Below are positions 5,201 to 41,448 of a stretch of DNA of 59,749 nucleotides, one piece after another. The DNA is taken from the UHGV virus genome UHGV-0185078. The stretch is one strand, 5' to 3'. Within the stretch, counting starts at the first letter, position 1; each line of letters starts with the position of its first letter. This DNA comes from a virus. Below the pieces are notes generated by a model that saw only the letters and a list, made by a program, of their open reading frames with translations, was not told the origin of the DNA and did not search any database. The position numbers were made by a program, and so were the translations under genes.

Positions 5201-5389
5201 CAACAAGGTGGCGTGAATATGTCCGGTGGTGTTAGCATTGTTCAGTATATCACGGTGCAAGGAAATGGCGATGCAGCACTCACACAAGCCATGCAAAAAG
5301 CAGCCCGTGATGGCGCTGAGCAGGGATATAATAAAGTTCTTAATGACTTTGCATCCCGAGGAACAATTCGTAGAACTGCAATGGGGTAA
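2273..5389 (+). CDS. tail tape measure protein
   Basis: 1038 aa, Ala/Gln/Lys-rich predicted coiled coil, hydrophobic Gly/Ala segment near C-terminus; follows chaperone pair. Confidence 0.85.
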   Translation: MAETASLVIRVDAKGISTADSMLRNLARTGDTAERSAQRVTSSYKTLSNTSNELATVTSRLDAAIVGMISVDTINRVISLSDSWTILTNKLELARTGNETVADAQQRVFDIAQRSRTSLEATATLYSRLQRAMKNTGMTGMELGRITETINKAMIVSGATSHEASAALIQFSQAMASGVLRGDEFRSVAEQAPRLTQIMSDALGVTIGQLREMAYSGKLTADVVIKSLSGAADTIDKEFSRTMPTFNQQWTVATNNLTKFMGESQKTQGAVAALGQTFVALSGNLGTVVTVGSALATVITARIITAMLAKTKASIAAAKASQMEAAQTAATTAVMQSSIGVTAQKAAADRAASLAALQVARGSLAVAKGTAAEAGARLALINATRAHSAAIMADVQARQALNAALNATVPAASRAATAMSVLRGAMGLIGGPVGVAMLAAGAIYSYKASLEAGRAENNQFADSVDTVRDKLMQMTEAQLAANAVKARAILPELEEQMKREQTALKSATETQKFYEAQLKRRAASGRDTASAEKNLQIATDNVKLAAERAEEAQRRYNNVLEMTSPAIEKIIPLARQLAADMKAVLNIKSGPLIDEKVLDRFKGQLGDVNREIDVNTVKGAGNARQAAILSGLYQTLGKDADTYGSLIRKVAMGQDVSSEATSESAKELVKYAQDLAQALGKNYDLEEAERNRTKATKDAIKAHQQNAKVIDDLRNKLNEVTTGVKENAKAKAQAVALNKLNASATAAEKEEVVRLAAAIYDAEEAQKKLDERKKNRKFAQGLLDEGMTDYEKIAYEQNTKIAELNAKQRADDLAYYQLYEDAKTQVLKKASMERENLDKVLMNRMISFSQESLGIIMDGLSQAVSQQNFFYKAMFAAQKAMQIPSILANTETAASAALAWGTQQGGATMGATMAAIVKTMGYASAATVGGLAIAGMAHDGIDNVPREGTWLLDKGERVLNAPSNDKLNRFLDSQASQQGGVNMSGGVSIVQYITVQGNGDAALTQAMQKAARDGAEQGYNKVLNDFASRGTIRRTAMG

Positions 5390-5392
5390 TAT

Positions 5393-5977
5393 ATGCTCAC
5401 TTGGCCCGAAGAAATTAGACCTTCCGAGATGGAATGGTATCTTGTTTCAAACTCTGTTGAATTTACAAGCCCCTTTAATGGGGCTTCACAAACTGTGTCC
5501 TATCCTGGGTCACGATGGGAAGCAACATTAACGTTCAGCAATTTAAATGACTGGCAATCCAGAAAGCTTGAATCAACGTTAGCTAAGCTTGACGGTAAAG
5601 CTGGTCGTATTATGCTTCAGGATTTTGGTCGCTGGGGTCGTGCACCGATTGGATCACCTGTGGTTAATGGCGCAAACAATACAGGGACAACTTTATCAAC
5701 CAAAGGTTGGACTCCTAACAGAAAGGTTCTATGGGAAGGGGATTACATCGCAGTAAATAATGAATTAAAATTAATAACCGAAGATGCTTGGAGCGATTCT
5801 TCTGGTAACGTGATTTTAAATATTGCCCCAATGCTGAGGACTATTCCACCAAATGGGGCTAAAATCGAAACTCAAAAACCACAAGGGGCTTTCCGTTTAG
5901 CAGAAAACACTAACGGGGTTAAGCGTCAACCAGCTTTTAATAATTCATTTACTTTAAAATTCTCGGAGGCGTTCTAA
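5393..5977 (+). CDS. minor tail protein (lambda M-like position)
   Basis: 194 aa ORF directly after tape measure; function from synteny only. Confidence 0.45.
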   Translation: MLTWPEEIRPSEMEWYLVSNSVEFTSPFNGASQTVSYPGSRWEATLTFSNLNDWQSRKLESTLAKLDGKAGRIMLQDFGRWGRAPIGSPVVNGANNTGTTLSTKGWTPNRKVLWEGDYIAVNNELKLITEDAWSDSSGNVILNIAPMLRTIPPNGAKIETQKPQGAFRLAENTNGVKRQPAFNNSFTLKFSEAF

Positions 5978-6561
5978 TGCTATTCAGCCCTTTCAGTGAT
6001 ACGCTTCTTAATGCAATGGAGCAGCCAAACGTTAGTTTGGTCCTTGCTGCGGAAATTGACTTTCCTTCTGGTGTAACGCGTGTACATACTGGGACAGGTG
6101 TTGTTGTTATTAACGGTCAAACGTTCCTGGGCGTTGGTACGCTTGGAGACGTAGGATCTGTAACAGAAGAAAACAGCACAAGCTCCAGCACAATGTCCAT
6201 GGCGCTAAGCGGTCTGGATATGAGTCTTGTTGGGGAGACGTTAAACGAAGAAGTTATCGGACGTAATGTTGTTTGCTATATTGCAGTGATGAACGATCAA
6301 GGTAACGTCATTGCTGCTAATATTTTGTTTGAAGGTTTCATTACAGACACCGCATTACAAGCAGGTCAACAGAATGCATTGAGTTATGTTATTTCCAACG
6401 TGTTTGAGCGTTGGTCACAAGGTTTACCAGATCGCTATACAGATGAAAGTCAACAGCGTTTATATCCGGGCGACCGTTTCTTTAGATATATTGCACAAAT
6501 GGCTGAACGTTCAATCTTTTGGGGGAGTAAAAAAGATGCGCCAGGGTTCTCCTATGAGTAA
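5977..6561 (+). CDS. minor tail protein (lambda L-like position)
   Basis: 194 aa ORF, ATG overlaps upstream stop; synteny only. Confidence 0.45.
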   Translation: MLFSPFSDTLLNAMEQPNVSLVLAAEIDFPSGVTRVHTGTGVVVINGQTFLGVGTLGDVGSVTEENSTSSSTMSMALSGLDMSLVGETLNEEVIGRNVVCYIAVMNDQGNVIAANILFEGFITDTALQAGQQNALSYVISNVFERWSQGLPDRYTDESQQRLYPGDRFFRYIAQMAERSIFWGSKKDAPGFSYE

Positions 6562-6970
6562 GTTGCCAGGCTGGCAGACACGTTTATTAACCACAGTAAA
6601 GGAGTTGTCATCGACTCCTTTTTCTTGGGGTGAAAATGATTGCTGCACCTTCGCGGCAAAATGTGTTGATGCGCAATACGGAACAAATATCTACGAACAA
6701 GTCGCTGGAAAATATAGTACAGAGCTTGGAAGTAAAAAGTTCACTATTGAAAGAGTTGGAACCGCTTACCTTCCATTGTTATTGGATACATATCTGAGCG
6801 AACGCGTTAACAAGAACTATGCGCAAAGAGGCGATGTGGTTACATTTGAGGGAGCATTGGGCTTAACTGCTGGCATATTATGGACTGGATATGTATGGGC
6901 TATGGGTCCGAACGGTGTGGAAACATTCCCGCTTAATAAGATCAAAATTACGGATATTTGGAGGGTCTAA
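6536..6970 (+). CDS. tail assembly protein (lambda K-like position), possible NlpC/P60-type Cys motif
   Basis: Start chosen at ATG 6536 preceded by GGGGGAG RBS (track ORF from 6386 would overlap upstream gene by 175 nt); contains ENDCCTF motif; stop overlaps next ATG (TAATG). Confidence 0.4.
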   Translation: MRQGSPMSKLPGWQTRLLTTVKELSSTPFSWGENDCCTFAAKCVDAQYGTNIYEQVAGKYSTELGSKKFTIERVGTAYLPLLLDTYLSERVNKNYAQRGDVVTFEGALGLTAGILWTGYVWAMGPNGVETFPLNKIKITDIWRV

Positions 6971-9900
6971 TGCCACCAGCAATAATTGGAGCAGCGATAG
7001 CTTTAGGTGCGTCGGCTGCTGCTGCGGCTAGTATTATTTCGGCTACTACCGCTCTCGTTATCGGTATTGCTGCAACTGCGGCAGGTGCTCTTTTAACTAA
7101 GACACCAAATATGAACTTTGATGCTTACAAGGGGCAGCAAGAGCGTAAACAGGTTCTGCGTGCGGCTACAGCGTCACGCTCTGTTGTATATGGCACGACC
7201 GTAGCGTCCGGACTATTAGCATTTGCGGAGGAAGAAGCTGGAGAACAAGATGAAGGTGAATGGATGCATCTTGTTGTTGTTCTTGCTAGTCATAAATTGG
7301 AAGGTATTGAAACAATTTGGTTGGGTGATGACGGAATTGATTGGTTTGGTGAAAACGCTACTTGGGAGTTTCATAACGACCGTCAGACTGTTGACCCATT
7401 CATGTTAAGACATTGTCCTTCCTGGAAGGAGGATATGATTGGCAAGGGTATTGCATGGCTACGTTTAAGCTTAAAGTTTGATGCTGAAAAATTCCCATCA
7501 GGTTTGCCAAACGTCAAGGTGTTGAAAAAGGGACGTAGAGTCTATGACCCACGTTCCGGTCAAACTGTCTTTAGCGATAATGCTGCTCTTGTTATTCTTG
7601 ATTATTTCCGCACGTATTTAAAGCGCAAGGACGAGAATATCAACTGGGACCAATTCAAGGAAGCTGCTAACATCTGCGATGAGTTTGTTACTAACGCAGA
7701 TAACACTACGGAAAGACGTTACCGCATTAACGGTGAGTTTGAAGTGGATGAAGCACCTGCCAAAATCCTTGATGCTATGCTTGAAGCTTGCGGCGGGGAG
7801 CTTACCTATATTGGTGGTAAACACGGTCTGTTAGTTGGTGCTTATTACGGTCCAGCTACCATGACTCTGGATGAAAGCTGCATTGCTGGGGACATTAAGA
7901 TTATCCCTGAGACATCTTATAAAGAACGCACCAATACCATTACAGGTACATTTGTTGACCCGAAGCAAACATACGCTGAAGCAGATTTTCCTCCAGTTGT
8001 GGTTAAGGAATGGGTGGAAAAAGATGGCGGCGAAATAACGCAAGACATGGATTTCCGCTTCGTTACAAGTGAATATCAAGCGCAACGGCTCGCTAATATT
8101 ATTTTACGTCGTAAGCGTGTTGGTCGAACAATTGAAGTGCCATGTAACATGAAGGGGTATAAATTCCGCCCGGGCATGTATGTTAACGTAACAATTTCAA
8201 ATATTGGAATGAAAAATGTTGAGATGCGCGTTACTAAATGGTCATTCGATCCTAAAGGTGGGATTAATCTTGTCCTTCGTCAAGACTTCCTGGAAATGTG
8301 GGACGACGCTATTGGTAAACCAATGGAGCGCCCGGATCTGGTAGACCTCCCGTCTGGTGCTATTGCTCAACCGCAAAACCTTCAGTATCAGGCATTGCAG
8401 ATTAGCGATGTTGTGCAGGGTGTTTTAACGTGGAGCAATATTGGACAGGTAGCGTATAACCGCGTAGCCGTGCGACAGGGAGGTACAACGGTTTGGACCG
8501 CACAAGTCCCTGGCCAAAACGTTCGCGTTACTGGGTTGCTGCGGGGCGCGTATACAGCACATGTTCAAGCGGTAGCCTATAGTGGGGCGGTATCACCGGA
8601 AGCGTATCTGGAATTTAATATTCAAGCTCCACCTCCTCCAACGTCTATTGAAGTGCAACAAGGTTACTTTGCAATAAGTCTAATCCCTAAATCCGCGGAT
8701 ATTGCAAACGTTAGCACGCAATATGATTTCTGGACGTCCGGTGAAACAAGATTGTCTTCCGTGTCTACAGATATTGTGGAACGCGAAGCGACTCGTAAAG
8801 GTATGGGTACAACATGGACTTCAGAAGGTTTGAAGAATGGCCACACTTACTACTGGTATGTTCGCACTATTAACGCTTTTGGATCGTCTGCATTTGTAGA
8901 GGTTGCTGCATTGTGTTTCACAACAGCTACAGACTTAATGCCACAGATTGATTCTGAGTTCAAGAAGACGGAGACTTATAAAGAGCTTACTGCTGAAATT
9001 ACAGGTGTTAAAGACGGTGTTACACAACTCAGTCAAACTGTAGTAGACACAGAAAAGCGTTTAAGTCAAAGTGTTAGCAACGTTCAGCAAAGCGTTATTA
9101 CTTTGGACGGCGTTGTTCAAGATCAGGGTGTTACCATCAACGAACAGGGGCAACTCATTGATGCACAGGGTCGATTAATTGATACGCAAGGTAAAACTAT
9201 TCAGCAAGTCAGCGCCACTGTACAGGAAACAAGTAAAGCAGTCGTAGATCTGGAAGGTAATGTTAACGCGCAATGGGGTGCTAAGGTACAGGTTGACAGT
9301 AAAGGGCAAAAATACGTTGCTGGTATCCAGTTGGGTATGGAAGGTTCAGGCGGTGCTGTACAATCTTACTTCATGGTGAGCGCTAACAACTTTGCTATCT
9401 ATAACCCGACAAACAGCGTAGCAGAATTGGCATTTGCTGTTAAGAACGGTCAAGTGTTCATGAAGGCTGCATTTATTGAAAATGGTACAATTGACAGCGC
9501 TAAAATTTCAAACCAGATTCAGTCAACAAACTACGCTAGCAATAGCGCGGGTTGGATGATCAACAAGAACGGTAGCGCTCAGTTTAACAACGTGACGGTA
9601 CGGGGTACGGTATACGCTAACAACGGATCTTTCACAGGAACAGTGAACGCAACAAGCGGTAAATTCAAGGGTACTGTGGAAGCTACCAGTTTTGTGGGTG
9701 ATGTCGCGAATATGTGTGTCATTGCTGAGTCTGCAATACCAAACACACAAACTACAAGTTCAAGAACCTGGACAAAAACTTTCAAAGACTCATCTGGTTC
9801 AACATTATCTAAAGACTTTGTGTTGTTATTAAGTTATAGTTTAACCGCATATACATCAAATCAGGCAAGTCGTATAATTGTGACTGCTAACATAGGTGGA

Positions 9901-10092
9901 ACATCAATAACAAGGAGGATTGAGCGAGCTGCCAATGGGCCTGCTATGGATGTAACCATACCTTTAGCAGTGAAAGGAAAGACAGCGTCGAGGGTAACAA
10001 TAAGCGTTAAGGAGGAATATACGAATGTCTATGGGAGTTACTTGCGTCCGTCTGTAATATTAATGACTCGCGGAACTGGTAGTTGGTCGTAA
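6970..10092 (+). CDS. tail tip / host specificity protein (lambda I+J-like)
   Basis: 1040 aa from ATG 6970 (GGAGGG RBS 4 nt upstream); hydrophobic Ala/Gly-rich N-terminus, large central body; position after M/L/K-like genes. Confidence 0.75.
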   Translation: MPPAIIGAAIALGASAAAAASIISATTALVIGIAATAAGALLTKTPNMNFDAYKGQQERKQVLRAATASRSVVYGTTVASGLLAFAEEEAGEQDEGEWMHLVVVLASHKLEGIETIWLGDDGIDWFGENATWEFHNDRQTVDPFMLRHCPSWKEDMIGKGIAWLRLSLKFDAEKFPSGLPNVKVLKKGRRVYDPRSGQTVFSDNAALVILDYFRTYLKRKDENINWDQFKEAANICDEFVTNADNTTERRYRINGEFEVDEAPAKILDAMLEACGGELTYIGGKHGLLVGAYYGPATMTLDESCIAGDIKIIPETSYKERTNTITGTFVDPKQTYAEADFPPVVVKEWVEKDGGEITQDMDFRFVTSEYQAQRLANIILRRKRVGRTIEVPCNMKGYKFRPGMYVNVTISNIGMKNVEMRVTKWSFDPKGGINLVLRQDFLEMWDDAIGKPMERPDLVDLPSGAIAQPQNLQYQALQISDVVQGVLTWSNIGQVAYNRVAVRQGGTTVWTAQVPGQNVRVTGLLRGAYTAHVQAVAYSGAVSPEAYLEFNIQAPPPPTSIEVQQGYFAISLIPKSADIANVSTQYDFWTSGETRLSSVSTDIVEREATRKGMGTTWTSEGLKNGHTYYWYVRTINAFGSSAFVEVAALCFTTATDLMPQIDSEFKKTETYKELTAEITGVKDGVTQLSQTVVDTEKRLSQSVSNVQQSVITLDGVVQDQGVTINEQGQLIDAQGRLIDTQGKTIQQVSATVQETSKAVVDLEGNVNAQWGAKVQVDSKGQKYVAGIQLGMEGSGGAVQSYFMVSANNFAIYNPTNSVAELAFAVKNGQVFMKAAFIENGTIDSAKISNQIQSTNYASNSAGWMINKNGSAQFNNVTVRGTVYANNGSFTGTVNATSGKFKGTVEATSFVGDVANMCVIAESAIPNTQTTSSRTWTKTFKDSSGSTLSKDFVLLLSYSLTAYTSNQASRIIVTANIGGTSITRRIERAANGPAMDVTIPLAVKGKTASRVTISVKEEYTNVYGSYLRPSVILMTRGTGSWS

Positions 10093-10098
10093 TAAATA

Positions 10099-10127
10099 AT
10101 TAACCCCTCGTTTGAGGGGTTAATTTT
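10099..10127. terminator. bidirectional rho-independent terminator between J-like gene and lipoprotein gene
   Basis: Perfect inverted repeat attaacccctc-gttt-gaggggttaat flanked by A/T runs on both sides. Confidence 0.7.
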
Positions 10128-10360
10128 CAATAATCAATTACACAGTTTGAAGGTGAACCAATTCGTCGGTATTCATGATCAATCTCATGGCACCATTGTC
10201 CAGTCATTGGAAGCTTTTCGGTATCATAAATTAAAGAACCGTTACCATCACGATCTAACGGTTTTGGAATTACGCCGGAATTAGGTTTACCAGTATTTAA
10301 ACCGTTACCACATGCAGTGAGGGATAAAGTTAATGCCAGCATAATTAAAGCGCGTTTCAT
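10127..10360 (-). CDS. small lipoprotein, candidate superinfection-exclusion protein (Cor/Llp-like)
   Basis: 77 aa, MKRALIMLALTLSLTAC signal peptide with lipobox L-T-A-C; GGAG RBS; antisense to flanking tail genes and bracketed by terminator and intergenic promoter region. Confidence 0.6.
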   Translation of the reverse strand: MKRALIMLALTLSLTACGNGLNTGKPNSGVIPKPLDRDGNGSLIYDTEKLPMTGQWCHEIDHEYRRIGSPSNCVIDY

Positions 10361-10442
10361 TGGGACTCCTTTGTGTTGTTGTCAAGGTTCAATTCTAATA
10401 TACTTGTTGTGTTGAGTAAGTCAAATAAATGTGGGAGATATT

Positions 10443-13400
10443 ATGGCAACTCGTTTACGTGGTACTTTAGTTGATGGTTTAAATAAACCAATTGTCAACG
10501 CTACAGTTGCGCTTTTAGCGAAAGGGAATAGCTTATTGGTATTGTCCGGTAGTGAAGCTATCTTTAAAACAAGCGCAACCGGAACATATGATATTACAGT
10601 CCAAACAGGCTATTACAAGGTTATTATCGGTCCGCAAGGTAGCGAGCCTTATAAAGCTGGTGAAATTGCTATTTACGCGGACAGTAAAGAAGGTACGCTG
10701 AATAACTATTTAACTTCCTGGGCACCGGAAGAGTTAACTCCGGAAGTTATTGCACAGGTTAAAGATTTAGTTTCACAAGCTGAGACAGCTAAGAATGCTT
10801 CTGCTGCATCTGCAACTAAATCCGAGCAAGAACGCGTTAAAGCAGAAGCTGCGGCACAGAATGCTGTAAACACCGCTAACGGTATGAAGGCATCTATTGG
10901 TCTGACTACCGCGCCTAGACATGTTGCAGATATTACAGTCAATCCGTCATCATTCTTGGGTTTTATACGGATTTTACGGTCTAGTACAGTAGGTTATCCG
11001 GATATCGCGTCCTCAGAAAACGCATTGGCCGGTTTTGTCTCCGCTATGGATGGAACCCCTGGATTTATAGGTGTTTTTGTTGGAGACATGACCGGGACTA
11101 TATATAGCTATAGATGGATTAAGGACGTTGGTGTTACATGGTGGAAGCAAGTTAACTATTCTACTGTCAACAGATATACCCAGCTAAACGCAGAAACTAA
11201 TTTTACAAACCAATTAGGCAATGCAAAACTCCTCATAGATAATAATAAAGTTTGGGGAGCATATGATAATGAAAATAAACGCTTCATACCTCTAGCAATA
11301 GCTCAAGGTGGTACAGGAGGAACTACTGACGCGGATGCTCGTACAAACTTAAGACTTGGTTCTAACGATACACCTCAATTCAGAAACCTTAATCTTGTTA
11401 CAGTAGCAGACTCCGCACAAGCGCCTTCCGGCATTGTGAGCGGTTATTTAAATAATAGCTCTGGAGTTCAAAGATGCCGCTACCGCATATATTCTGAAAT
11501 AAGAGGTGACAATAAAGCGTGGTTAACCTTACACCTTCAATCAGACACAGCAACAAATAAATATGCTGGTCTAAGCGTTGATGGTAATTTTCAAATCAAT
11601 GGAAATTTTATTGGTAATGCTTTGCAGTTGTCAGACGCTCCAAATTCCAGGATTAATCTACAGTTAGATCGTTTTTATCAAAGTGCTAACGAAACGGTTA
11701 TTTATACTCCGTCTCGTCAAGCATATATGACAATTTCTAATAACAAGACTTGGGGTGCTTATGACGCGGAAGCTCAAAACTTCATCCCTTTACCTATTAA
11801 TAGGGGAGGGACTGGTGCTTTAACAATATCCGACGCTAAGACTAATCTTCAAATTCCGTCTGTAGGTGGGGGTGATTGGTTAACTTATAACGCTCCTCCT
11901 GGCGTGGAAGCTGGAAAGTATTATCCAGTTATCATCGATATGGCATACAGCTCTTTATATGCTTCTGGTGCTTTTATAGATATAAAGACACGTTCTGCCG
12001 CTGGTGACGATCCAATGAACTGTTGCACTTTTAACGGATTTATTAGATGTGGTGGTTGGAGCGACCGAAAAGACGGCGGTTATGGTTACTTTAACAACTA
12101 TGCAAGAAATGAAATTGCTATGAAATGTATTCTTTCTTCATCTAAAGATGCGGAAAGATACGTTGCAATATATGTTGAAGGTCGTGGTTTCCCTCTTCAA
12201 TTGCGTGTCCCTGCATTCTGTGAAGTAACAGTACCAACATCAAACTTTACTTATAAAAATACAACCTATGCGTGGGGTACAGCTAACCCTGCAACGGATT
12301 CTGTAGCTATAAACACCTTATTTGATTTTTCATTAAACCGCGTTGGTTTTTACCAGGCCACGACAGAAGGTAATTATTATATCGGAAATGGGGAACGTAT
12401 TGTTTTATCTAACGGAATGTCTGTGGGTGAAGAGTTAAGTCTAACCACACCTAAAGTGTCTTTCAGTGGAACCATTGCGGCTGGTAACGGTGTCATTGCA
12501 GATGGAACATCTGTATCCAACGCTACTTTTTATAGCCGTTATCGTGTTGGTGACGTAATATATGGCAGCGAGTTTCGCGCAAGTGAAAATGCTGGTCAAA
12601 TTATAGTCCGCGATCCAACGGGTGGGACTGCGCATCAATTCTTTAACTTCAATCTCAACGGGACATTCAGCGCCCCCGCTGGTTTGCTATCTTCTACTGG
12701 AGTAGATTGGAACGGTCAGATTAATACCGTCAATAAATTCTATGGGATTGCTGGACAAGTTAACACACCAGAAAACAATGTGGTTTATGGTGGTATACAT
12801 GTTGGATTCAGCGGCAACTATGCTTTCCAGATATGCGGAAGGAAAGGTAAATCCTTCTTCCGCACATTTGAAGCAGGAGTAGAAGGACAATGGCAACAAT
12901 TAGTAACTAAAGGGAACTACGGAGTTGGTCTAATTGGAACTTTTAAACCGGAAGATGGTTCAAGTGGTTTTTACACTGATTCCGATGGGGCAAATACTTG
13001 GTCGCCCGCTAACGGAGGGGGTTTTCAATCTTCGTATACTCAGCAGCGAATATTCCAATTTTGGATGACATCAAGCTCGCAGGGGTTTATTCGTTTTAAC
13101 AATAGCGGTAACGCGCAAGCGTCTAAGACAGATAGACCTTGGACAACGCTTCAAGCTGCTGGTACATCTGATATTAACTTCAAACGTGTTCACGGTGAAA
13201 TGGACACAGATGTTGCGTTAGATAATATTAGCAAGCTTGAATTTGTTTATTTCAACTACTTGTCCGACGGTCCGGAGCGTGAAATCCGTAGGGGTATTAT
13301 TGCTCAACAGGCCCAGGAAGTTGATCCTGAATATGTACATAGTGCTGAAACATCCGGAAAAATGACTTTGGATTCTAACCCATTGTTATTGGATGCATTA

Positions 13401-13529
13401 GCTGCAATACAATCCCTCAAGAAAAAGGATCAAGATAATAAAGACCGCATTAGCAAGCTTGAAACTGAAGTTGAGGAACTCAAAAAGCTAGTTGCTACGC
13501 TTGTTAATAAAGATCAACCATTACCATAA
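10443..13529 (+). CDS. tail fiber protein with C-terminal intramolecular chaperone (peptidase S74-like) domain
   Basis: ATG 10443 after GGGAGA RBS; repeated GGTG..A.TNL fiber motifs; C-terminus SDINFKRV...GIIAQQAQEVDPEYV...LLLDALAAIQSLKK matches the endosialidase-chaperone pattern. Confidence 0.8.
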   Translation: MATRLRGTLVDGLNKPIVNATVALLAKGNSLLVLSGSEAIFKTSATGTYDITVQTGYYKVIIGPQGSEPYKAGEIAIYADSKEGTLNNYLTSWAPEELTPEVIAQVKDLVSQAETAKNASAASATKSEQERVKAEAAAQNAVNTANGMKASIGLTTAPRHVADITVNPSSFLGFIRILRSSTVGYPDIASSENALAGFVSAMDGTPGFIGVFVGDMTGTIYSYRWIKDVGVTWWKQVNYSTVNRYTQLNAETNFTNQLGNAKLLIDNNKVWGAYDNENKRFIPLAIAQGGTGGTTDADARTNLRLGSNDTPQFRNLNLVTVADSAQAPSGIVSGYLNNSSGVQRCRYRIYSEIRGDNKAWLTLHLQSDTATNKYAGLSVDGNFQINGNFIGNALQLSDAPNSRINLQLDRFYQSANETVIYTPSRQAYMTISNNKTWGAYDAEAQNFIPLPINRGGTGALTISDAKTNLQIPSVGGGDWLTYNAPPGVEAGKYYPVIIDMAYSSLYASGAFIDIKTRSAAGDDPMNCCTFNGFIRCGGWSDRKDGGYGYFNNYARNEIAMKCILSSSKDAERYVAIYVEGRGFPLQLRVPAFCEVTVPTSNFTYKNTTYAWGTANPATDSVAINTLFDFSLNRVGFYQATTEGNYYIGNGERIVLSNGMSVGEELSLTTPKVSFSGTIAAGNGVIADGTSVSNATFYSRYRVGDVIYGSEFRASENAGQIIVRDPTGGTAHQFFNFNLNGTFSAPAGLLSSTGVDWNGQINTVNKFYGIAGQVNTPENNVVYGGIHVGFSGNYAFQICGRKGKSFFRTFEAGVEGQWQQLVTKGNYGVGLIGTFKPEDGSSGFYTDSDGANTWSPANGGGFQSSYTQQRIFQFWMTSSSQGFIRFNNSGNAQASKTDRPWTTLQAAGTSDINFKRVHGEMDTDVALDNISKLEFVYFNYLSDGPEREIRRGIIAQQAQEVDPEYVHSAETSGKMTLDSNPLLLDALAAIQSLKKKDQDNKDRISKLETEVEELKKLVATLVNKDQPLP

Positions 13530-13546
13530 CCACATCTAACTTCAAC

Positions 13547-13571
13547 AGCGCGTCTTCGGGCGCGCTTTTTA
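13547..13571 (+). terminator. rho-independent terminator after tail fiber gene
   Basis: agcgcgtcttcgggcgcgct hairpin followed by ttttt. Confidence 0.7.
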
Positions 13572-13700
13572 TTGGCTGTCAATCCTGATTTACAAAATCT
13601 TTACATATGGATCATTGTAAAAAGCATGTTAAGGGGTATGCTTTACTTCGTAACCAGTTGGTTACATCCGCTTAACAAATCCATATATGGAGATTTTCCT

Positions 13701-14408
13701 ATGTCTGACATGACTCTTTTACCTACTAATCTCGGTGGCGACGGTTTCGGCGGTGAAGCTGGTGCGGCTGGTATCGGTGGCGCGATCGGTGGCTTAATTG
13801 GTTCCTGGATCGGTAATGGTTGGGGTGGCAATGGTGGTTGGGGTGGTCGCGGTAACTTCGCTGGCCCGGTGGAAGTGCAAGCTTCTGTTGACACCAACGC
13901 AATTCTGCAAGCTATCAACAACGGTACTCTTCAGACCATTCAGGGGCAGAACGGTACTAACCTGACTGTTGAGCGCTCCGCTGCTTCTACCTATAACGGC
14001 ATCACTCAGCAGAACACTCAGAACATGCTGGCTTCCGTTCAGGGCTTTGCTGGTCTGAACACGCAAATTCAGGGTGGCACCAGCCAAGTGCTCGCGGCTC
14101 TGTGTAGCAACGAAGCGGCTAACATTACCCGTTCTTTCCAGGCCCAGTTAGCAGCCGAGAAGTGTTGCTGCGAAACCAACCTGAACATCGAGCGTCAAGC
14201 TGAAGCTACCCGTGCGCTAATCCGTGACCAGCACGCACAGGCGCAAGCAGTTCTGATCTGTGACCTGAAATCTCAGTTGCAGGAAGCTCGCTTTGCAAAC
14301 TCTCAGTTGGCACAAACGGCTGGTCTTACTTGTAAGATCAATCAGGTTGAGCAGTTAGTTAACTTTAAACTGCCAACTCCTCCAACTCCTCCGACTGGCT
14401 GCTGCTAA
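13701..14408 (+). CDS. glycine-zipper / Cys-cluster protein of unknown function (possible fiber-associated adhesin)
   Basis: ATG 13701 after GGAGA RBS; N-terminal GGDGFGGEAGAAGIGGAIGGLIGSWIGNGWGGNGGWGG, Gln/Asn/Thr-rich middle, CCC motif and C-terminal PTPPTPPTGCC. Confidence 0.55.
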   Translation: MSDMTLLPTNLGGDGFGGEAGAAGIGGAIGGLIGSWIGNGWGGNGGWGGRGNFAGPVEVQASVDTNAILQAINNGTLQTIQGQNGTNLTVERSAASTYNGITQQNTQNMLASVQGFAGLNTQIQGGTSQVLAALCSNEAANITRSFQAQLAAEKCCCETNLNIERQAEATRALIRDQHAQAQAVLICDLKSQLQEARFANSQLAQTAGLTCKINQVEQLVNFKLPTPPTPPTGCC

Positions 14409-14429
14409 TCGTTGAAGTGTGGTTAAACT

Positions 14430-14464
14430 AAAGCGCCTTTCGCTCCTCCGCTTGGGGCGCTTTT
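14430..14464 (+). terminator. candidate terminator after Gly-rich protein gene
   Basis: aagcgcc...ggcgctt inverted repeat (long loop) followed by ttt. Confidence 0.35.
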
Positions 14465-14479
14465 AACAGAGGTACTATC

Positions 14480-14848
14480 ATGAGCCACATTAAAATCGCA
14501 ACGATGGGAATGCCACGGGTCAAATTGCCTAAGGTTGCTTTACCTCGCATTAGCGTAGGCGAGCACCACCATGAACATGAGAAAGAGGAATATAAACATG
14601 CTCACTCTTATGCTCGAGATCATGAACATATGGCAGCTATGTCAAATGTTCTTGACCGGATGGAAGAACCTCCGCATACGTGGGCGGCGTACCACGACAA
14701 GCCCGGCGGTATGATGTCCATCGTTGAAATGGAATACCGCGAATTAATGGAGTGTAAGAAAGAAGGCGACCGCGCAGGGATCATGAAAGAGTTGACTGAT
14801 CTTGCCGCAGCTTGTACTTGCGCTCTTCAAAAAATGAAAGATATGTAA
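14480..14848 (+). CDS. His-rich protein, possible MazG-like nucleotide pyrophosphohydrolase domain
   Basis: 122 aa; HHHEHEKEEYKHAHSYARDHEH stretch; C-terminal EYRELMEC...KELTDLAAA resembles ExxE...ExxD of all-alpha NTP pyrophosphatases. Confidence 0.35.
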   Translation: MSHIKIATMGMPRVKLPKVALPRISVGEHHHEHEKEEYKHAHSYARDHEHMAAMSNVLDRMEEPPHTWAAYHDKPGGMMSIVEMEYRELMECKKEGDRAGIMKELTDLAAACTCALQKMKDM

Positions 14849-14863
14849 GAATAGGAAGCCGAC

Positions 14864-15394
14864 ATGCAAAACGTAAACGCAGGAATGGGCGTAACCCAGT
14901 TCAACGGGATGAAACCGAAAAACTCCATCAACATGGGCGGTGTTGATTGGACGTTACGTCGGGACGCTACCGATTCAACTACCATGTTCCCACACCAGAA
15001 GGTGAGCTGGCTTAATGCAGGCTGTGAACCTATGGGTGATGGAAGGGTTCATTACTGTTGGATTATGGGGGTGATACCGCCTACGCCGGGCACTATCGAA
15101 CGACCCGTGAATGTGATGTATGTCGGCTTCCACCAGTTTAAAATCACGATCGCTCCAAACTCCATTAGTCAGTCTGATCTTGATCGTATGCACGTTTACG
15201 TCAGCGATGGTACAGACTTTGCAGGGGATTTTATTAATAAGTTTCTTGGTATGCAACCTGAGCAGCCTGTAGAAGCACGCGAGCATATTAGCCCGTGGCC
15301 ACCCATGATTGATCAGGAAGTGCTGCAACCAAAGACCGCTCAAACGGTCCCTCAGAAACCGGAGCAGAAGGTGAAACCAAATGACGAAGAATGA
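14864..15394 (+). CDS. hypothetical protein
   Basis: 176 aa ORF with AGGAAG RBS. Confidence 0.45.
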   Translation: MQNVNAGMGVTQFNGMKPKNSINMGGVDWTLRRDATDSTTMFPHQKVSWLNAGCEPMGDGRVHYCWIMGVIPPTPGTIERPVNVMYVGFHQFKITIAPNSISQSDLDRMHVYVSDGTDFAGDFINKFLGMQPEQPVEAREHISPWPPMIDQEVLQPKTAQTVPQKPEQKVKPNDEE

Positions 15395-15665
15395 AGGTAT
15401 TGATAAAGTTGTTGAAGGACTTTCTATTCGTGCTCATGTTATAGCCGATGAAGGTCATGATCAACTTACTATTATGAAATCCGCATTCAGCGATTTCAAG
15501 TCGCTTGGAAACTTAAGCGGGTTAATGACAGTAGTGTCGACCGGAAAATTAACGCAGCAGCAAATCAGTCTAGCTCAACGTATTGCTGTTAAAGTTATTG
15601 CGGTACTTGGGATGATTGAAGCTGAAAAGCCCAGTTCCAAGCAGGATAACGAAAGCGACCTTTAA
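15381..15665 (+). CDS. hypothetical protein
   Basis: 94 aa ORF, GGTGA RBS, overlaps upstream gene end. Confidence 0.45.
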   Translation: MTKNEGIDKVVEGLSIRAHVIADEGHDQLTIMKSAFSDFKSLGNLSGLMTVVSTGKLTQQQISLAQRIAVKVIAVLGMIEAEKPSSKQDNESDL

Positions 15666-36164: not shown

Positions 36165-36629
36165 TTAAGAGTATGTACCTGTTTGAACAATGTGATTAAT
36201 AGCATGTGCTCTGAAGATTTCCCTAAAATCTTCAAGTTCTATTGTAGCACGAATTGGTTCCTTTTTAATATAATGATTGAACTCATTAATATCAAAGACG
36301 GAAGGGTTCATACATATAACAACTTTCCAACCTGCTCTAGGAATCTTATACATTAAGACTGGGATTTTATTACATTCCTGTGCAGACTTAACAGTTTGCT
36401 TCCACCATGTGTTAACAGCAAGAGTTGCATGGTTTTTGATCTCTACACAATATTGGCAAGTATTATCAATATCCGCACCACCTACAGCCGATTGATTTTG
36501 TCGCCTTTGTGCAATAGGTTTAGGTGGTAACGGTTTACCAATAAGCTTATGCACTTCCGCATAGATATCGTTGAAAAAATCGCAAGCTTCCCTTTCAGCT
36601 CTCTGACCTTTTTGCCGTATGTTGACCAT
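36165..36629 (-). CDS. PD-(D/E)XK-type nuclease-like protein
   Basis: GGADID...CVEIK motif; start placed at ATG 36629 (AAGGA RBS); 5' end overlaps HNH gene by 35 nt. Confidence 0.45.
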   Translation of the reverse strand: MVNIRQKGQRAEREACDFFNDIYAEVHKLIGKPLPPKPIAQRRQNQSAVGGADIDNTCQYCVEIKNHATLAVNTWWKQTVKSAQECNKIPVLMYKIPRAGWKVVICMNPSVFDINEFNHYIKKEPIRATIELEDFREIFRAHAINHIVQTGTYS

Positions 36630-37107
36630 GATTTGCAAATTCCTTATGTAATTCCAATCTTTTAGTTCTAACCCAAGCTTTAGCAGCTTGTAAACCTTCA
36701 GGTGTAAGTTCAAAATATTTTGATACCAAAACACCTTTTACATGTAAGTTTGCATAATAGACTTGAATGCCATTATGTTTTGTAATAGTTACGCACTTAA
36801 CACCAGTCTTTGAGTCTTTACGAATAACCATATTATAATTGTTCTGTGAACGATCAGCCAGTCTAAGATTTTCTATTCTGTTATCATCTCGAACTCCGTT
36901 AATATGATCAATTATCTTGTCTTCAGGAATATCACCATTGAAGTATTGCCATATTAACCTGTGAGCGAAATAAAATCTCTTATCAATTTTACCTTGAATG
37001 TAACCATCCTGACGTTTTGTACCAAATGGTCTTTTATTATAACCGTTTTTATTTCTTTGAAATAATTTGCCATCTATATAAATAAAGCGATCGTTTACAT
37101 TGATCAT
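36595..37107 (-). CDS. HNH homing endonuclease
   Basis: HRLIWQYFNGDIPEDKIIDHINGVRDDNRIENLRL HNH motif; start taken at ATG 37107. Confidence 0.75.
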   Translation of the reverse strand: MINVNDRFIYIDGKLFQRNKNGYNKRPFGTKRQDGYIQGKIDKRFYFAHRLIWQYFNGDIPEDKIIDHINGVRDDNRIENLRLADRSQNNYNMVIRKDSKTGVKCVTITKHNGIQVYYANLHVKGVLVSKYFELTPEGLQAAKAWVRTKRLELHKEFANHGQHTAKRSES

Positions 37108-37153
37108 GTTTACCTCCTTTATATGTATTTTAATATGAAGTAAAATCAATCTC

Positions 37154-37185
37154 AATAAAAAAGCGCAACGTTTTCACGCTGCGCT
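37154..37185 (-). terminator. rho-independent terminator closing the structured non-coding island
   Basis: Minus strand agcgcagcg-tgaaaa-cgttgcgct hairpin followed by tttttt. Confidence 0.6.
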
Positions 37186-37491
37186 TAGTTTAAATAAGGT
37201 ACTTGACTATTCAGCTTCCCTTATTTCCGGTAAATTGTACAGCCTCGCCAAAGGCTGGTGACGGTTTGGTACATCTGGCGCCGTCGCGTTAAACATCGTT
37301 TACATCGTTCAGTAAGTTGCGGGTTTACCCTGTCCGCTCCAGGAAGCCCAGCGAAAGTAGTTGCTGTAAGGAGGTACAGCTACCGCTTTCAAGGGCTTGA
37401 GTTAAGCATCGTTCACTAAGTTAATGTTGTTAAATTGTTAAACCTCGTTAACTGTGGTTATCTTAAAGGATGCAGTCTTGAATGGCAAGCT
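37186..37491 (-). other. GC-rich structured non-coding island (candidate ncRNA or cis element) between the HNH genes
   Basis: No ORF on either strand; multiple short perfect stems (cagcct-cgccaa-aggctg, gctgta-aggagg-tacagc, gggt-tt-accc); closed by terminator 37154-37185 on the minus strand. Confidence 0.4.
37294..37423. repeat. direct repeats catcgttca(g/c)taagtt within the structured island
   Basis: Copies at 37303-37318 and 37408-37423 (15/16 identical) plus partial copy catcgtt at 37294-37300. Confidence 0.5.
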
Positions 37492-37806
37492 TCAATTTTG
37501 CGCGGTTCCCTTTGCCGCTTTTGGTGCTAAAGTACCATCATTTAACATCAACTCAAAACCTGTTACTTGATCGGTTGGAACAATAGGGTAATTCATAATA
37601 GCCATGTGGATACGATGCCCTCCCTCACACTCGTCGATGTATTCATTACCCCAATAGTATAAATGCCCATCTCTTCGAATATCCATTGCCGTCGGGAAAT
37701 CTACAAGAATTCTTTTAATTTCTTTTCGTCCTTCTTTATGCAGATTAGTTTCAATACGGATAAGCTCCGCATAAATTGCTTCACAGATAGTATTTACAAT
37801 ACTCAT
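37492..37806 (-). CDS. hypothetical protein
   Basis: 104 aa ORF followed by about 300 bp non-coding structured DNA. Confidence 0.4.
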   Translation of the reverse strand: MSIVNTICEAIYAELIRIETNLHKEGRKEIKRILVDFPTAMDIRRDGHLYYWGNEYIDECEGGHRIHMAIMNYPIVPTDQVTGFELMLNDGTLAPKAAKGTAQN

Positions 37807-37831
37807 TTTTCGTTCCTCACAGAATGTACAA

Positions 37832-38386
37832 TTAAGATTCTTTTCCGTGTCTAAGACTATACCCTAATTCATACTCTTTGGCAAATCTTACTTCAATAGC
37901 TTCATCTTTTGTAGGATAACTACCAAGATGCGTCCATTTTCCGTCAATACTTATAGCAGCTTGCCAAAGTCCTGTAGCAGGATTAAATTTTACGCCCGTA
38001 CATCCGGACGTGTTGTTAATGTTCATGCGTCTATTCTTTTGGTTATCTTGTCGTGAACTATTTTTTAAGTTCCATGGACGGTTATTCAACCCATTCCCGT
38101 CATCATGATCAATTTCTTCAGGTTCTTCATTATAGAGCATCTTCCAGATTATACGATGTGCCAGATAATGAAGACCGTCTAGACCAACAAGAATATAAAC
38201 GTTTCGGTCTTTAACAACAGCGCGACCAGCTTCTTTTCCTGCGAACTGAGAGTTGAATTTGGAACAAGCTCTTTGTGTTTTAAAGAACTTTAAAGGCGCT
38301 TTCTTCCATCTTAAAATGCCAGTCTCTTCATTATACTCAAAACGATCATGCAAATAGTCAAATGAAGGTAAAGGTCTAAATCTCAT
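37832..38386 (-). CDS. HNH homing endonuclease with AP2-like C-terminal domain
   Basis: HRIIWKMLYNEEPEEIDHDDGNGLNNRPWNLK HNH motif; C-terminal GVKFNPATGLWQAAISIDGKWTHLGSYPTKDEA AP2-like; start taken at ATG 38386. Confidence 0.75.
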   Translation of the reverse strand: MRFRPLPSFDYLHDRFEYNEETGILRWKKAPLKFFKTQRACSKFNSQFAGKEAGRAVVKDRNVYILVGLDGLHYLAHRIIWKMLYNEEPEEIDHDDGNGLNNRPWNLKNSSRQDNQKNRRMNINNTSGCTGVKFNPATGLWQAAISIDGKWTHLGSYPTKDEAIEVRFAKEYELGYSLRHGKES

Positions 38387-38627
38387 ATTATTACCTATAA
38401 CCAATATGTAAACCAGAAATAACCAGCTACGAAAATAGCACCCGCAAATAATTTTAAAAGCTCGAACATTGTCCCCTCCGTTAACTTTATGCTGTAAGTA
38501 TAGCAGGACTTGCGATGTATGCAACAACTTTAGACTTGAAATGCATCTATAAAATAGCACGATTTGCCTTTACCTCTGATCCGTCTAGCTGTACTATTAA
38601 CCCATAAACAGAGCGGAGGATTACAAA

Positions 38628-38852
38628 ATGGTCATGCTGAATAAAGTATATAGCACAATGGGCGCGGATTATAAAGTTGTACGTCACCCGCGTACTGGTA
38701 AATTTGAAGCATACATCCGTCCAATGGGTGAAGGTTGGATGTATTACGGTACTTATGACGACGCTGAGAAAGCTTATAAAGAAGCGGAAAGTACAGCGGA
38801 AGCATCCGAAATTATGGCAAGGTACGACGTCGATGATTACTACCTTAACTAA
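38628..38852 (+). CDS. small hypothetical protein encoded antisense to the replication module
   Basis: 74 aa; GGAGGA RBS 7 nt upstream of ATG; followed by a perfect hairpin terminator. Confidence 0.5.
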   Translation: MVMLNKVYSTMGADYKVVRHPRTGKFEAYIRPMGEGWMYYGTYDDAEKAYKEAESTAEASEIMARYDVDDYYLN

Positions 38853-38857
38853 CAATA

Positions 38858-38883
38858 AAGGGCCTTTCGGCCCTTTATTTATT
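38858..38883. terminator. bidirectional terminator between small + gene and primase gene
   Basis: aaagggcc-tttc-ggcccttt perfect hairpin flanked by A and T runs. Confidence 0.7.
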
Positions 38884-41221
38884 CCTCTTCACCTAAGTTT
38901 GCCATAATTCCTTCAACATCTTGCGTAATGCGCCAAGCTGCCCCAGTAAATCCCAGTTTAATAGTCTCCTCCCGTGTTACCGGAACAAGGGCCCCCATAG
39001 CAACCATTTCCTTGATCGTAGACTCGATCGCTGCGGACAATCCGTGGTGATAGTTTTTAAACGCGGACTTACTTGCAAGACGCGTAGTAATATCCCCCCG
39101 CGTGATAATACCTTCTTTACGTAGATCTACACGTTTAACTTTCACCCAATCTTTAGTTAGATAATTCACACAAACCTGGCACATAGTACGGATACGAGCT
39201 TCGTCATTAGTACCAATACCCCCGCTATGCCATTCCTTCATAATGATATCCTGTCCATGGCGCACAAAGTCCAAGGCCCATTGAACATGATAGGTCTGCA
39301 CAACTGGATTGATCCAATTTTCTCCCACAGCTAACAGGGCGGATAGACGTAATACCTTCAGGTGTGCACGGTTCCATGGCTGACGGATTGCTTCATCTTT
39401 GGTTGCGTTAATATTACGGTCGCATTCATCGTTAAACTGATCACATAATGCTTCAGCATCCGGACTAAACTGCACTTCAATACTTTGATGCTTTGCCATT
39501 GCGACTAAGGTGTGGTTAACAAGATGGCACACCATATCCCGCAAATGCTGATCCATTGTAGTCTGCTGGTTCTTGTTTAAAGGCGGTCGATCCCCTTCAT
39601 AGCGGACAACATGGAAACGGGATAAGAAACCATCCTCCATCATTTCACGGGTTAATGCTTCAAAGAACGTATCCGGTGTCGTTTCGCCCATGATGCTATA
39701 TGCCACACCTTGTTGAGCTTCCGTATTATTAGCCTTATCAGAATAAGACATACCACCAACAATAGACATCTGACCGGACTTTTGATAAACATCGGTAAGG
39801 TCATTCTTGAAGCTTTGCATTGGTGAACCTGCTGGTGCCGTAGCCATTGCTTTAATAATCTTACCAAACTCACCGTTCAAGTTGATAAAAGATTGTTTGT
39901 CCGCAAAAGATTTACGCAGTGCGGAGCCGGAAGCGCATCGGTCAAAAGATACAAAGCTATGAATCTGCGGGAACGGTTCCTGAAGCTGGCTAACTATATT
40001 AGATAGCCCACTGTTCAACGTTTCTTTACCAACACCAGAACGAGCAATAAGGACGAAATATCCATTAAGACCAGATTGCGGAATCTGCCAGACCTTCCCG
40101 CATACCCCAGCCATAAAGCCTAGCGCTGTCACAATAGAAATTTCTTTCACTGGTCGGACGGATGCTTTGTAGATGTACTTCGCAAGCTCCCCAGCAAGCC
40201 CCGGCGGCCAGTCAATAGCGGTTGCATCAATAGATGTACTTTCTGCAACTACGGTCTGCCCCTGAGTTGTTTCAACAGTTACGGGCATTTCCGCTACCTG
40301 CTGCATTGCACTGTGTGCAGCTTGCATACGGGCAGCATAATCCCGCGCCAGCGCAGCTACGTTTTCCTGGGCAATGCGCTCACGCTCCATGCGTCCGCGA
40401 CACATACGCAAGCAACGGTCAATATGAACATTGTTCTTATTAGCCTTCTCACGTTTGCCCAGTGCACTGTAACGGAACAGACGACGGCATTGCTCATTAC
40501 TTTCCGTGTAAAATGCATACATAGAAATAAGGGCAAGGTCTGCTTCAGACTGGGAAGGGAAACCCATTTCAACCCATTCACCATTGAATAACCGTGAATA
40601 CTTATCGCCGTTATCTGCTTCAAGTGCGCGCTGATGAATAGTTGCATCATCTTCTACCGGATCTTTTTCTACCAGTTCAATTTCATATGTCTTGCGCTGA
40701 AGATCAATTTCATTCACAAGCATAGTAAGGTAATGATCACGTTCGGCAACTGATTTATTGTAGACAGGATTGCCCGTGCAGATAATAAAACGCTCCTGAC
40801 TATAAACCTCGACACCATCACGTCGACGACCTTTACCGATGTTACCTCTTAACCACAGGTGAACACCTAAGCCTGAGCGACTTACTTCGGTGTAAGTATC
40901 GAACGCAGTCATGATCTGTTCGAAGCGGCGCAACTGTTCCGGCGTCGTGTGCTTCTTGGGATCCGGTTCATTGGTTGCGTTCTTCACATCCAGGTCGATG
41001 CAGGTGAACGGGTCTTGTGCAGTAAGCACGAATCCAATATAAGGTTTATTGAAATGAGCGGCGCAACCTTTGGCAGCTTCAAACGTCATAAGCATATCCG
41101 GATCGGTAACGTCCGCCGCCATCAAACGTCCAATATCGCTATCCCATACCAACGGCTTTTTATCCGCATCGGCGACCGCCCATTGTGGGAAAGCTTTAAT
41201 TTCAGCGGGAAACAGTTCCAT
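38879..41221 (-). CDS. DNA primase (AEP/prim-pol-like N-terminus) fused to P-loop helicase domain
   Basis: 780 aa; N-terminal GLGVHLWLRG-type primase signature; Walker A-like ARSGVGKET in the second half. Confidence 0.6.
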   Translation of the reverse strand: MELFPAEIKAFPQWAVADADKKPLVWDSDIGRLMAADVTDPDMLMTFEAAKGCAAHFNKPYIGFVLTAQDPFTCIDLDVKNATNEPDPKKHTTPEQLRRFEQIMTAFDTYTEVSRSGLGVHLWLRGNIGKGRRRDGVEVYSQERFIICTGNPVYNKSVAERDHYLTMLVNEIDLQRKTYEIELVEKDPVEDDATIHQRALEADNGDKYSRLFNGEWVEMGFPSQSEADLALISMYAFYTESNEQCRRLFRYSALGKREKANKNNVHIDRCLRMCRGRMERERIAQENVAALARDYAARMQAAHSAMQQVAEMPVTVETTQGQTVVAESTSIDATAIDWPPGLAGELAKYIYKASVRPVKEISIVTALGFMAGVCGKVWQIPQSGLNGYFVLIARSGVGKETLNSGLSNIVSQLQEPFPQIHSFVSFDRCASGSALRKSFADKQSFINLNGEFGKIIKAMATAPAGSPMQSFKNDLTDVYQKSGQMSIVGGMSYSDKANNTEAQQGVAYSIMGETTPDTFFEALTREMMEDGFLSRFHVVRYEGDRPPLNKNQQTTMDQHLRDMVCHLVNHTLVAMAKHQSIEVQFSPDAEALCDQFNDECDRNINATKDEAIRQPWNRAHLKVLRLSALLAVGENWINPVVQTYHVQWALDFVRHGQDIIMKEWHSGGIGTNDEARIRTMCQVCVNYLTKDWVKVKRVDLRKEGIITRGDITTRLASKSAFKNYHHGLSAAIESTIKEMVAMGALVPVTREETIKLGFTGAAWRITQDVEGIMANLGEEE

Positions 41222-41232
41222 GATTTATCCTT

Positions 41233-41448
41233 TTACTGAGAACTAACCATTGCACAACCGATAGCAGCAAATAAGTGCTTCTTAGTCTCATTGATCACTT
41301 TCTCTGCATCCAGATAGCTCTCATAATGTCCAAGGTAAACAATAGTCCCTACAACCATAATATAAGCTGTGCGGTAATGCATGTAATGACCAATGAACCA
41401 TCCCTGCTCCCGAAGCTTATTTTGTCCAACTTCACTAAGTACCATCAT
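41233..41448 (-). CDS. hypothetical small protein
   Basis: 71 aa ORF with one hydrophobic segment. Confidence 0.35.
   Translation of the reverse strand: MMVLSEVGQNKLREQGWFIGHYMHYRTAYIMVVGTIVYLGHYESYLDAEKVINETKKHLFAAIGCAMVSSQ

Follow-up and report, generated by a model that had tools for sequence, protein, structure and literature searches.

The open reading frame at positions 38628-38852 (+ strand) of the studied window, the whole 59,749-nt stretch of virus genome UHGV-0185078, is a real core gene of Seuratvirus that forms its own compact expression unit inside a leftward replication module. The gene starts at an ATG (38628), ends at a TAA (38850-38852) and encodes a protein of 74 amino acids, predicted to consist of a lone AP2/ERF-like domain that ends in an acidic helix. 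It corresponds to CPT_Seurat59 / phrog_22269. The ORF is very probably an expressed, autonomous and genus-wide gene that is insulated by a hairpin from the primase operon.

The window was assigned to Seuratvirus (CAjan/Seurat-like coliphages; Queuovirinae). Its genes are directed rightward at 71-15665 and from approximately 45589 on, with a long leftward block in between, and the GC skew tracks the direction of transcription across the window. The ORF sits within the leftward replication and nucleotide-metabolism block and converges with the gene of a 780-aa primase/helicase (38879-41221, - strand; phrog_3022). The 2-kb stretch around the ORF is matched by 37 phage records, 35 of which are Seuratvirus-type (including CAjan, Seurat, slur01 and several BASEL phages). 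The identity to this stretch is 94.8-97.6% in 34 of these 35 records and 83% in the divergent Salmonella phage STP-SP5.

A lone rightward ORF with a GGAGGA ribosome-binding site, lying antisense within the leftward module, had been described in a sequence-only reading of the window, and all these elements are present as described. The match to phrog_22269 spans the full length of the product (E 6e-53). A tblastn search found the full-length product in 35/35 Seuratvirus records, always at the same site and in the same orientation; the Seuratvirus-type primase is also present in 35 records, with identity of at least 99% in 16 and of 60-80% in 19. Of the 35 records, 34 have an orthologue with 93-97% identity. 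The STP-SP5 product is 40% identical to that of the window, whereas the primases of the two phages are 74% and the dUTPases 75% identical.

The substitution pattern indicates purifying selection. For the window and L004, a metagenomic relative with 81-82% identity, Sd = Nd = 17.5, which corresponds to dS of 0.57, dN of 0.105 and omega of 0.18. Third codon positions account for 20 of the 35 differences from L004 and for 35 of the 65 differences from L006. Within Seuratvirus the selection pattern is that of ordinary purifying selection and not of an arms race. The phrog_22269 match, the presence in all records, and the low dN/dS ratio combined with the third-position bias thus establish the ORF as a real gene. 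An antisense ORF (38547-38855, 102 aa) was considered as a coding region and rejected as a by-product: substitutions hit the first positions of its codons, and STP-SP5 has an interrupted frame.

In GenBank, the orthologue CPT_Seurat59 (AIW03922.1) is already annotated as a 'hypothetical protein' without domain assignment, and NCBIfam contains no family for the product. Scans of IMG/VR and JGI metagenomes yielded close Seuratvirus relatives only. In the literature that we searched, there is no transcript map, proteome or genetic data for the gene, and no transcriptome or proteome for any Seuratvirus.

The gene is followed by a hairpin (38854-38879, both strands; AATAAAGGGCC-TTTC-GGCCCTTTATT) with a perfect 11-bp stem (arms 11/11 complementary, 100%) and a 4-nt loop. 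The TAA stop codon of the primase gene (38879-38881, - strand) overlaps the last stem base, so that the hairpin takes up all 26 nt between the convergent genes. The RNA folding energy is -16.4 kcal/mol on the + strand and -17.8 kcal/mol on the - strand, with z-scores of -5.0 and -4.3, respectively, and none of 200 shuffled sequences is as stable. The consensus scan, which applies a strict U-run rule, called a terminator for the + strand and none for the primase strand, where the U-tract UUUAUUGUU qualifies only when the A/U extension of the stem is read as part of the tail. The record of phage Seurat (KM236243) independently annotates the RBS and the terminator on both strands for CPT_Seurat59.

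The stem is maintained by compensatory changes, from GGGCC/GGCCC to GGGTC/GACCC in STP-SP5 and from AAAGGG/CCCTTT to AAGGGG/CCCCTT in L006 and L016. The loop is free to vary and takes at least seven sequences (including TTTC, GAAA, GTTT, AAAT, AAAC and TAGT). Such a combination of a compensated stem and a free loop looks like a signature of selection on structure. The earlier proposal that a perfect hairpin is shared with the convergent primase gene is borne out by the complementary arms, the stability on both strands and the compensatory changes. The GC-rich stem, the A-/U-tract flanks and the evolutionary upkeep expected of a bidirectional terminator are all found here, with termination itself being predicted.

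The hairpin also coincides with a change in sequence similarity. Between Skure and the window, the intergenic region is 94.8% identical, the gene is 96.4% identical and the stem is the same, whereas the next 400 nt of the primase gene are 52-61% identical. Approximately half of Seuratvirus genomes have a primase allele that is about 60% identical to that of the window over the C-terminal 300 residues. Since in Skure the identity drops exactly at the hairpin, the predicted terminator is also a recombination junction, and it forms a sharp mosaic boundary between the cassette and the primase alleles.

The strong Shine-Dalgarno sequence GGAGGA (38615-38620, + strand) is located 7 nt before the ATG, and its GGAGG core is invariant in all relatives. 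The consensus scan detected no sigma-70-type promoter for ORF 38628-38852. From conservation, we infer a private promoter that would start transcription of the ORF. Its candidate -10 element TACTAT (38592-38597, + strand), preceded by TG, is invariant in six lineages and in a fragment from phage SPJ41 (see below), and a possible -35 element TTTACC (38569-38574, + strand) is separated from it by a 17-nt spacer. The predicted transcript start falls in the block TTAACCCATA (38597-38606, + strand), an exact 10-mer shared with phage Vid5 from another genus. This block is unique in the window, where the leader does not recur beyond chance. The folding of the leader is ordinary (z-score +1.0). The N-terminal peptide is kept through synonymous changes, and therefore the constraint acts on the peptide.

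The upstream intergenic region of 157 bp (38471-38627) is unusually conserved and separates the ORF from a divergent leftward unit. The first gene of this unit is a conserved mini-ORF for a hydrophobic 24-aa peptide (38396-38470, - strand; MFELLKLFAGAIFVAGYFWFTYWL) with the Shine-Dalgarno sequence GGAGGGG (38474-38480, - strand). It is intact in every relative examined, with 10 conservative replacements in the STP-SP5 copy, and has no annotation in the three feature tables examined (Seurat, KS_A3 and STP-SP5). The second position is variable. In the window it is occupied by a gene for an HNH_3 + AP2 homing endonuclease (37832-38386, - strand; 184 aa from the ATG at 38386), an insertion whose only other carrier is STP-SP5 (83% nucleotide identity); in Seurat, KS_A3, Skure and L004 it is filled by other small genes. 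The final gene of the unit encodes a 104-aa protein of phrog_25787 (37492-37806, - strand), and the unit ends at a terminator-like hairpin found by the consensus scan (37186-37161, - strand). The ORF and this unit therefore form the two arms of a small divergent cassette that is enclosed by terminators.

Two putative extended -10-like elements are directed towards the leftward unit, a proximal one (TGCTATACT, 38497-38505, - strand; TATAAT in STP-SP5) and a distal one (TGCTATTTT, 38551-38559, - strand). Each of them is overlapped by one of two 14-nt direct repeats, ATAGCAGGACTTGC (38500-38513) and ATAGCACGATTTGC (38554-38567), which are 54 bp apart. No further exact copies of the repeat motif were found in the window. 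A search of positions 37400-39400 against Rfam gave nothing meaningful.

The product of the ORF is, with good probability, a homologue of AP2 domains. The match to the Pfam AP2 family (PF00847) is sub-threshold (16.2 bits, E 0.013; gathering cut-off 33.3). An hhalign comparison of the product family with seven AP2 domains, three from phage HNH enzymes and four Pfam-verified, yielded a probability of 95.9% (E 5.7e-9); the negative controls gave 0.2% (Vid5 gp60) and 2.5% (ORF 41233-41448). The latter 71-aa ORF looks AP2-like by eye and was rejected as an AP2 candidate at this low value. In PDB, the family profile matched WRI1 (7wq5), a DNA-bound AP2 factor, with E 6.8e-6, and ERF096 and AtERF1 more weakly. 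In a library of 1.84 billion proteins, it identified three more divergent family members (P0004, P0006 and P0017), and its matches there include proteins confirmed by Pfam as multi-AP2.

The motifs shared with the AP2/ERF family (PF00847; plant WRI1/ERF, the C-terminal domain of phage HNH_3 enzymes, phrog_99) are G-K/R-F/Y-x-A-x-I/V-R, followed by W/Y-x-Y-x-G-T-Y/F-D-x-A-E-x-A, and a beta-sheet with a helix is predicted for the product. The AlphaFold2 model, built from seven sequences (pLDDT 81.9), contains strands at residues 7-9, 13-19, 26-32 and 38-43 and a helix at 46-69; an AP2/ERF domain has a three-stranded antiparallel sheet packed on one helix. Foldseek searches of PDB with two AlphaFold2 models revealed no significant match, with no AP2 structure in the top 50 and no significant match to known small acidic inhibitors. 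In BFVD, searched with one model, only the orthologue was significant, and many small uncharacterised phage proteins matched weakly. Given the Foldseek result, the AP2 homology therefore rests on sequence. In contrast to AP2/ERF proteins, the window protein is stand-alone, nuclease-free and without any other domain, is acidic and not basic, and has an extra conserved N-terminal strand, MVMLNKVYS. Several Arg and Trp positions expected to contact DNA, whose roles we take to be those of AtERF1, are not conserved in the window family.

All eight family members are acidic, with pI of 4.05-5.05 (4.8 for the window protein) and net charge from -2 to -12, compared with pI of 6.9-10 for the comparator AP2 domains. 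The C-terminal helix has a net charge of -4 to -9. For the sheet half, the net charge is +3 in the main Seuratvirus clade but negative in P0017 and STP-SP5. The invariant positions are the N-terminal MxMLN..YS, D14, R31, W37, A49 and E61; the only conserved basic positions are K16, K/R25 and R31, and most basic residues of the sheet vary. By its charge, the family does not have the basic DNA-contact surface of an AP2/ERF domain, and this family-wide acidity argues against classical DNA binding. On the other side, every AP2 domain tested so far binds DNA, to our knowledge.

Our tentative preference is that an AP2 scaffold has been turned into a small acidic effector that binds protein. The scaffold would most likely derive from a phage HNH endonuclease, namely from its DNA-binding domain, and it could now serve as a small, abundant, non-catalytic binder of a protein target, either host or phage, via its acidic helix, and not as a classical binder of specific DNA sequences. 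Counting against this reading are the ordinary purifying selection within Seuratvirus, the absence of significant PDB matches and a promoter missed by the consensus scan. The private rightward promoter would stand back-to-back with two leftward promoters driving the 24-aa membrane peptide and the downstream genes. The hairpin would halt both converging transcripts, so that antisense read-through would be prevented. The product would occupy an accessory expression slot, which in sister genera is filled by unrelated small acidic proteins.

It is possible, though on the whole unlikely, that the product is a classical AP2-type DNA-binding regulator of the divergent intergenic promoters, that is, of its own and of those of the leftward unit, with binding sites such as the 14-nt repeats, where it would repress these promoters or set their timing. 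The layout between the terminators at 38854-38879 and 37161-37186 is that of a textbook divergent regulator and operon, and the repeats, with the consensus ATAGCAsGAyTTGC, reach into the promoter spacers. The AP2 homology itself, the positive sheet half of the main clade, the invariant R31 and the conserved K16 and K/R25 point in the same direction, and phage HNH endonucleases and CasPR repressors use their AP2 domains to bind DNA (bioRxiv 10.64898/2026.02.23.707548). However, acidity extends throughout the family, with distant members reaching a net charge of -10 to -12 and a negative sheet half. Moreover, the sheet residues mostly differ between the window and STP-SP5, while the intergenic DNA blocks, including the candidate operators, are almost unchanged. 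The conserved DNA is therefore unlikely to be an operator of the product, and a protein of such low identity beside near-identical intergenic DNA does not look like part of an operator-repressor pair. The repeat motif, with no further exact copies in the window, gives no sign of a regulon.

Comparison with sister genera bears on the choice between an effector and a regulator. Pantoea phage Vid5 and Nonagvirus JenP2, whose primases are 61% and 39% identical to that of the window, have the same slot occupied in the same orientation, convergent with the primase gene, by gp60 (73 aa) and gp58 (74 aa), respectively. Both slots contain a TATAGT -10 element, a start context ending in ...ACAAAATG and a GC-rich two-way hairpin. 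The RBS of JenP2 gp58 is GCGGAGGAAC, and Vid5 encodes a homologous 24-aa peptide, MGYILSLISSGLFAFAYFYIVWWL. The occupants are acidic, with net charge of -8 for Vid5 gp60 and -7 for JenP2 gp58 by hand count. Neither of them has detectable AP2 similarity, and hhalign comparison of both with the window's family gave a probability of at most 0.2%. The slot is missing in Pseudomonas phage JG054, where dut directly follows primase. As the signals are kept in Vid5 and JenP2 with unrelated occupants, the expression signals outlast the contents. Vid5 has kept the TTAACCCATA leader together with the gene of the 24-aa peptide, and its slot protein is nevertheless non-homologous, which speaks against a regulator of these promoters. 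The slot pattern fits an accessory effector better than a dedicated regulator.

We speculate further, at low confidence, that the region downstream of primase in enterobacterial siphophages of Queuovirinae type (Seuratvirus, Nonagvirus and Vidquintavirus) could be a 'plug-in' cassette with interchangeable small acidic host-takeover or anti-defence effectors, the Seuratvirus occupant being an HNH-derived AP2 domain turned into an acidic protein binder or DNA mimic. Such a cassette would combine a private promoter with the conserved leader TTAACCCATA...ACAAAATG and with a two-way terminator doubling as a recombination junction, and would be paired with the conserved 24-aa membrane peptide in at least Seuratvirus and Vid5.

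An origin tied to the neighbouring homing endonucleases is improbable. The ORF would then be a cargo or moron of the adjoining HNH gene, as the sequence-only reading had suggested, or a decayed HNH-AP2 endonuclease perhaps shielding a homing site. The region is indeed a hot spot of free-standing HNH genes (37832-38386 in the window and STP-SP5; a second one at 36595-37110 in the window), AP2 is the usual DNA-binding module of HNH enzymes, and the product has weak matches to phrog_99/953. However, the gene is present in 35/35 records and an HNH gene at that site in 1/35, and therefore the gene is independent of HNH. The comparison with relatives that lack the neighbouring HNH gene refutes the cargo idea, as the gene is still there. 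The ORF is encoded on the strand opposite to the HNH genes, and its GC content is 42.7%, compared with 44.3% for the genome and with 37.7% and 32.2% for the two HNH genes. Its frame is intact and evolves under purifying selection, its private N-terminus is conserved, and the product is equally distant from phage HNH AP2 domains and plant AP2 domains, not closer to the former.

Two Felixounaviruses illustrate the traffic in this region. In these phages, SPJ41 and SWJM-02, the mini-ORF and the leftward half of the intergenic region are present at 94.5% identity, followed by an inserted unrelated 127-aa gene and then by the -10 element, the RBS and the first six codons (MVMLNN) of the ORF. This fragment abuts an HNH-AP2 endonuclease gene beside split DNA-polymerase genes, which would favour an HNH-related element, but the gene body was not transferred. 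Thus the cassette flanks travel with homing-endonuclease traffic, and the gene body does not.

The moron label stands in part. Lambdoid-phage morons, which Juhala et al. are said to have described in 2000 as autonomous promoter-gene-terminator units, resemble the ORF in being autonomous units (here with a putative promoter) placed between genes of a functional module. In contrast to them, the ORF is fixed in a lytic genus, has GC content typical of the genome and is absent from bacterial chromosomes and plasmids; neither the sporadic distribution nor the atypical composition of a moron is seen. A search of 5,426 complete E. coli genomes yielded no match to the cassette, nor did PLSDB contain one to the protein, and a prophage or plasmid origin was rejected on these grounds. 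At the genus level the label has more to offer, given the varying slot occupants, with unrelated genes in Nonagvirus and Vidquintavirus, and the absence of the slot in JG054.

That the protein is incidental and the locus acts at the RNA or DNA level, whether through a rightward transcript with an antisense or insulating role, as a junction for recombination or as an origin of replication beside primase, is very improbable: the terminator does coincide with the mosaic boundary (96% identity on the left vs 52-61% on the right) and tandem promoter-like repeats lie near primase, but the substitution pattern and the N-terminal peptide point to selection on the protein, the Rfam search and the leader folding gave no signal, and the GC skew has no switch near 38.5 kb, where an origin was considered and rejected.

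Among known systems, the closest functional precedent for the product is the CasPR group, CapR + AP2 anti-CRISPR repressors of Bacillota phages and prophages (bioRxiv 10.64898/2026.02.23.707548), which likewise are phage-encoded, nuclease-free AP2 proteins. CasPRs are much larger and need a Cys-rich CapR zinc domain and conserved AP2 Arg residues (10.64898/2026.02.23.707548), whereas the window protein lacks Cys and, at 74 aa, is too short to hold a second domain. Without a CapR zinc domain, it is therefore not a CasPR member. CasPRs demonstrate that phages deploy AP2 for non-homing purposes. The product can tentatively also be compared with T7 Gp2 and Ocr. These are small acidic phage inhibitor proteins, similar to it in size, acidic charge and a private strong expression signal, with no sequence or Foldseek similarity.

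The gene itself is already known from public annotation and its architecture is ordinary: CPT_Seurat59 / phrog_22269 is the same gene at the same position, with the same RBS and two-way terminator and no structural difference. The new findings are modest: the product is assigned to AP2 and is acidic, its slot recurs across genera, and the terminator marks a mosaic boundary. The proposed nuclease-free acidic AP2-like protein would be the first domain assignment for phrog_22269 and adds to recent evidence of phage AP2 use outside homing endonucleases. The locus also offers a tidy natural case of a compact, predicted two-way terminator that both insulates the convergent genes and lies at a sharp mosaic boundary. 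BASEL-collection phages growing on E. coli K-12 make the slot idea testable, and should the slot prove to hold interchangeable effectors in different genera, new host-takeover or anti-defence proteins could conveniently be sought there.

A variable site separates the 24-codon mini-ORF from the 104-aa gene, as seen when window 37832-38386 is compared with L001, L002 and the metagenomic relative L004. It is occupied by an HNH gene in the window and in the divergent Salmonella phage STP-SP5, by a 65-aa gene in Seurat, by a 71-aa gene in KS_A3 that is also found in Salmonella phage SPJ41, and by three small genes in L004. A second homing endonuclease gene with HNH_3 and AP2 domains (36595-37110, minus strand, GC 32%) sits about 0.7 kb from the first HNH gene (37832-38386), and the GC minimum of the window is the 36-39 kb region (0.37-0.40).

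The mini-ORF itself (38396-38470, minus strand) is hydrophobic and conserved and has a strong Shine-Dalgarno sequence; it is not annotated in the feature tables of three records (Seurat, KS_A3 and STP-SP5). Its reading frame is unbroken in all relatives examined, and Pantoea phage Vid5 has a 24-aa homologue. The product is probably a real small membrane peptide.

About 300 nt of the minus strand within 37155-37491, flanked by a promoter-like site (37488..37460) and a terminator (37186..37161), contain no convincing ORF. This stretch carries repeated GAACGATG motifs and has a folding z-score of -2.9; its sole Rfam match is a sub-threshold hit to ncS54 (21.6 vs 43 bits). It is a candidate non-coding RNA or long 3' UTR.

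Two primase alleles occur among Seuratvirus genomes, with about 100% and about 60% identity over the C-terminal 300 residues. The alleles part precisely where the terminator hairpin lies, at the 3' end of the primase gene (window 38854-38883). The same post-primase slot holds acidic genes of 73-74 codons in Vid5 (3425-3646) and Nonagvirus JenP2 (3446-3670), which are not related to the 74-aa gene of the window; their -10 elements, RBS context and two-way terminators resemble those of the 74-aa gene. JenP2 gp58 corresponds to phrog_17131.

A predicted 45-aa protein of the representative library, P0012, combines a Seurat58-like N-terminus, derived from a leftward gene, with the last ~25 residues of the 74-aa protein, encoded rightward. 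Such a protein points to either a rearrangement or a chimeric assembly.

A Seuratvirus-derived segment (94.5% identity) is present in two Felixounaviruses, SPJ41 (ON868915, 2470-3165) and SWJM-02. It comprises the mini-ORF, half of the intergenic region, and then the -10 element, RBS and first six codons of the 74-aa gene, and is interrupted in the middle by a 127-aa gene. At this segment, an HNH-AP2 endonuclease adjoins split DNA-polymerase genes. The arrangement looks like an inter-family transfer tied to homing-endonuclease activity.
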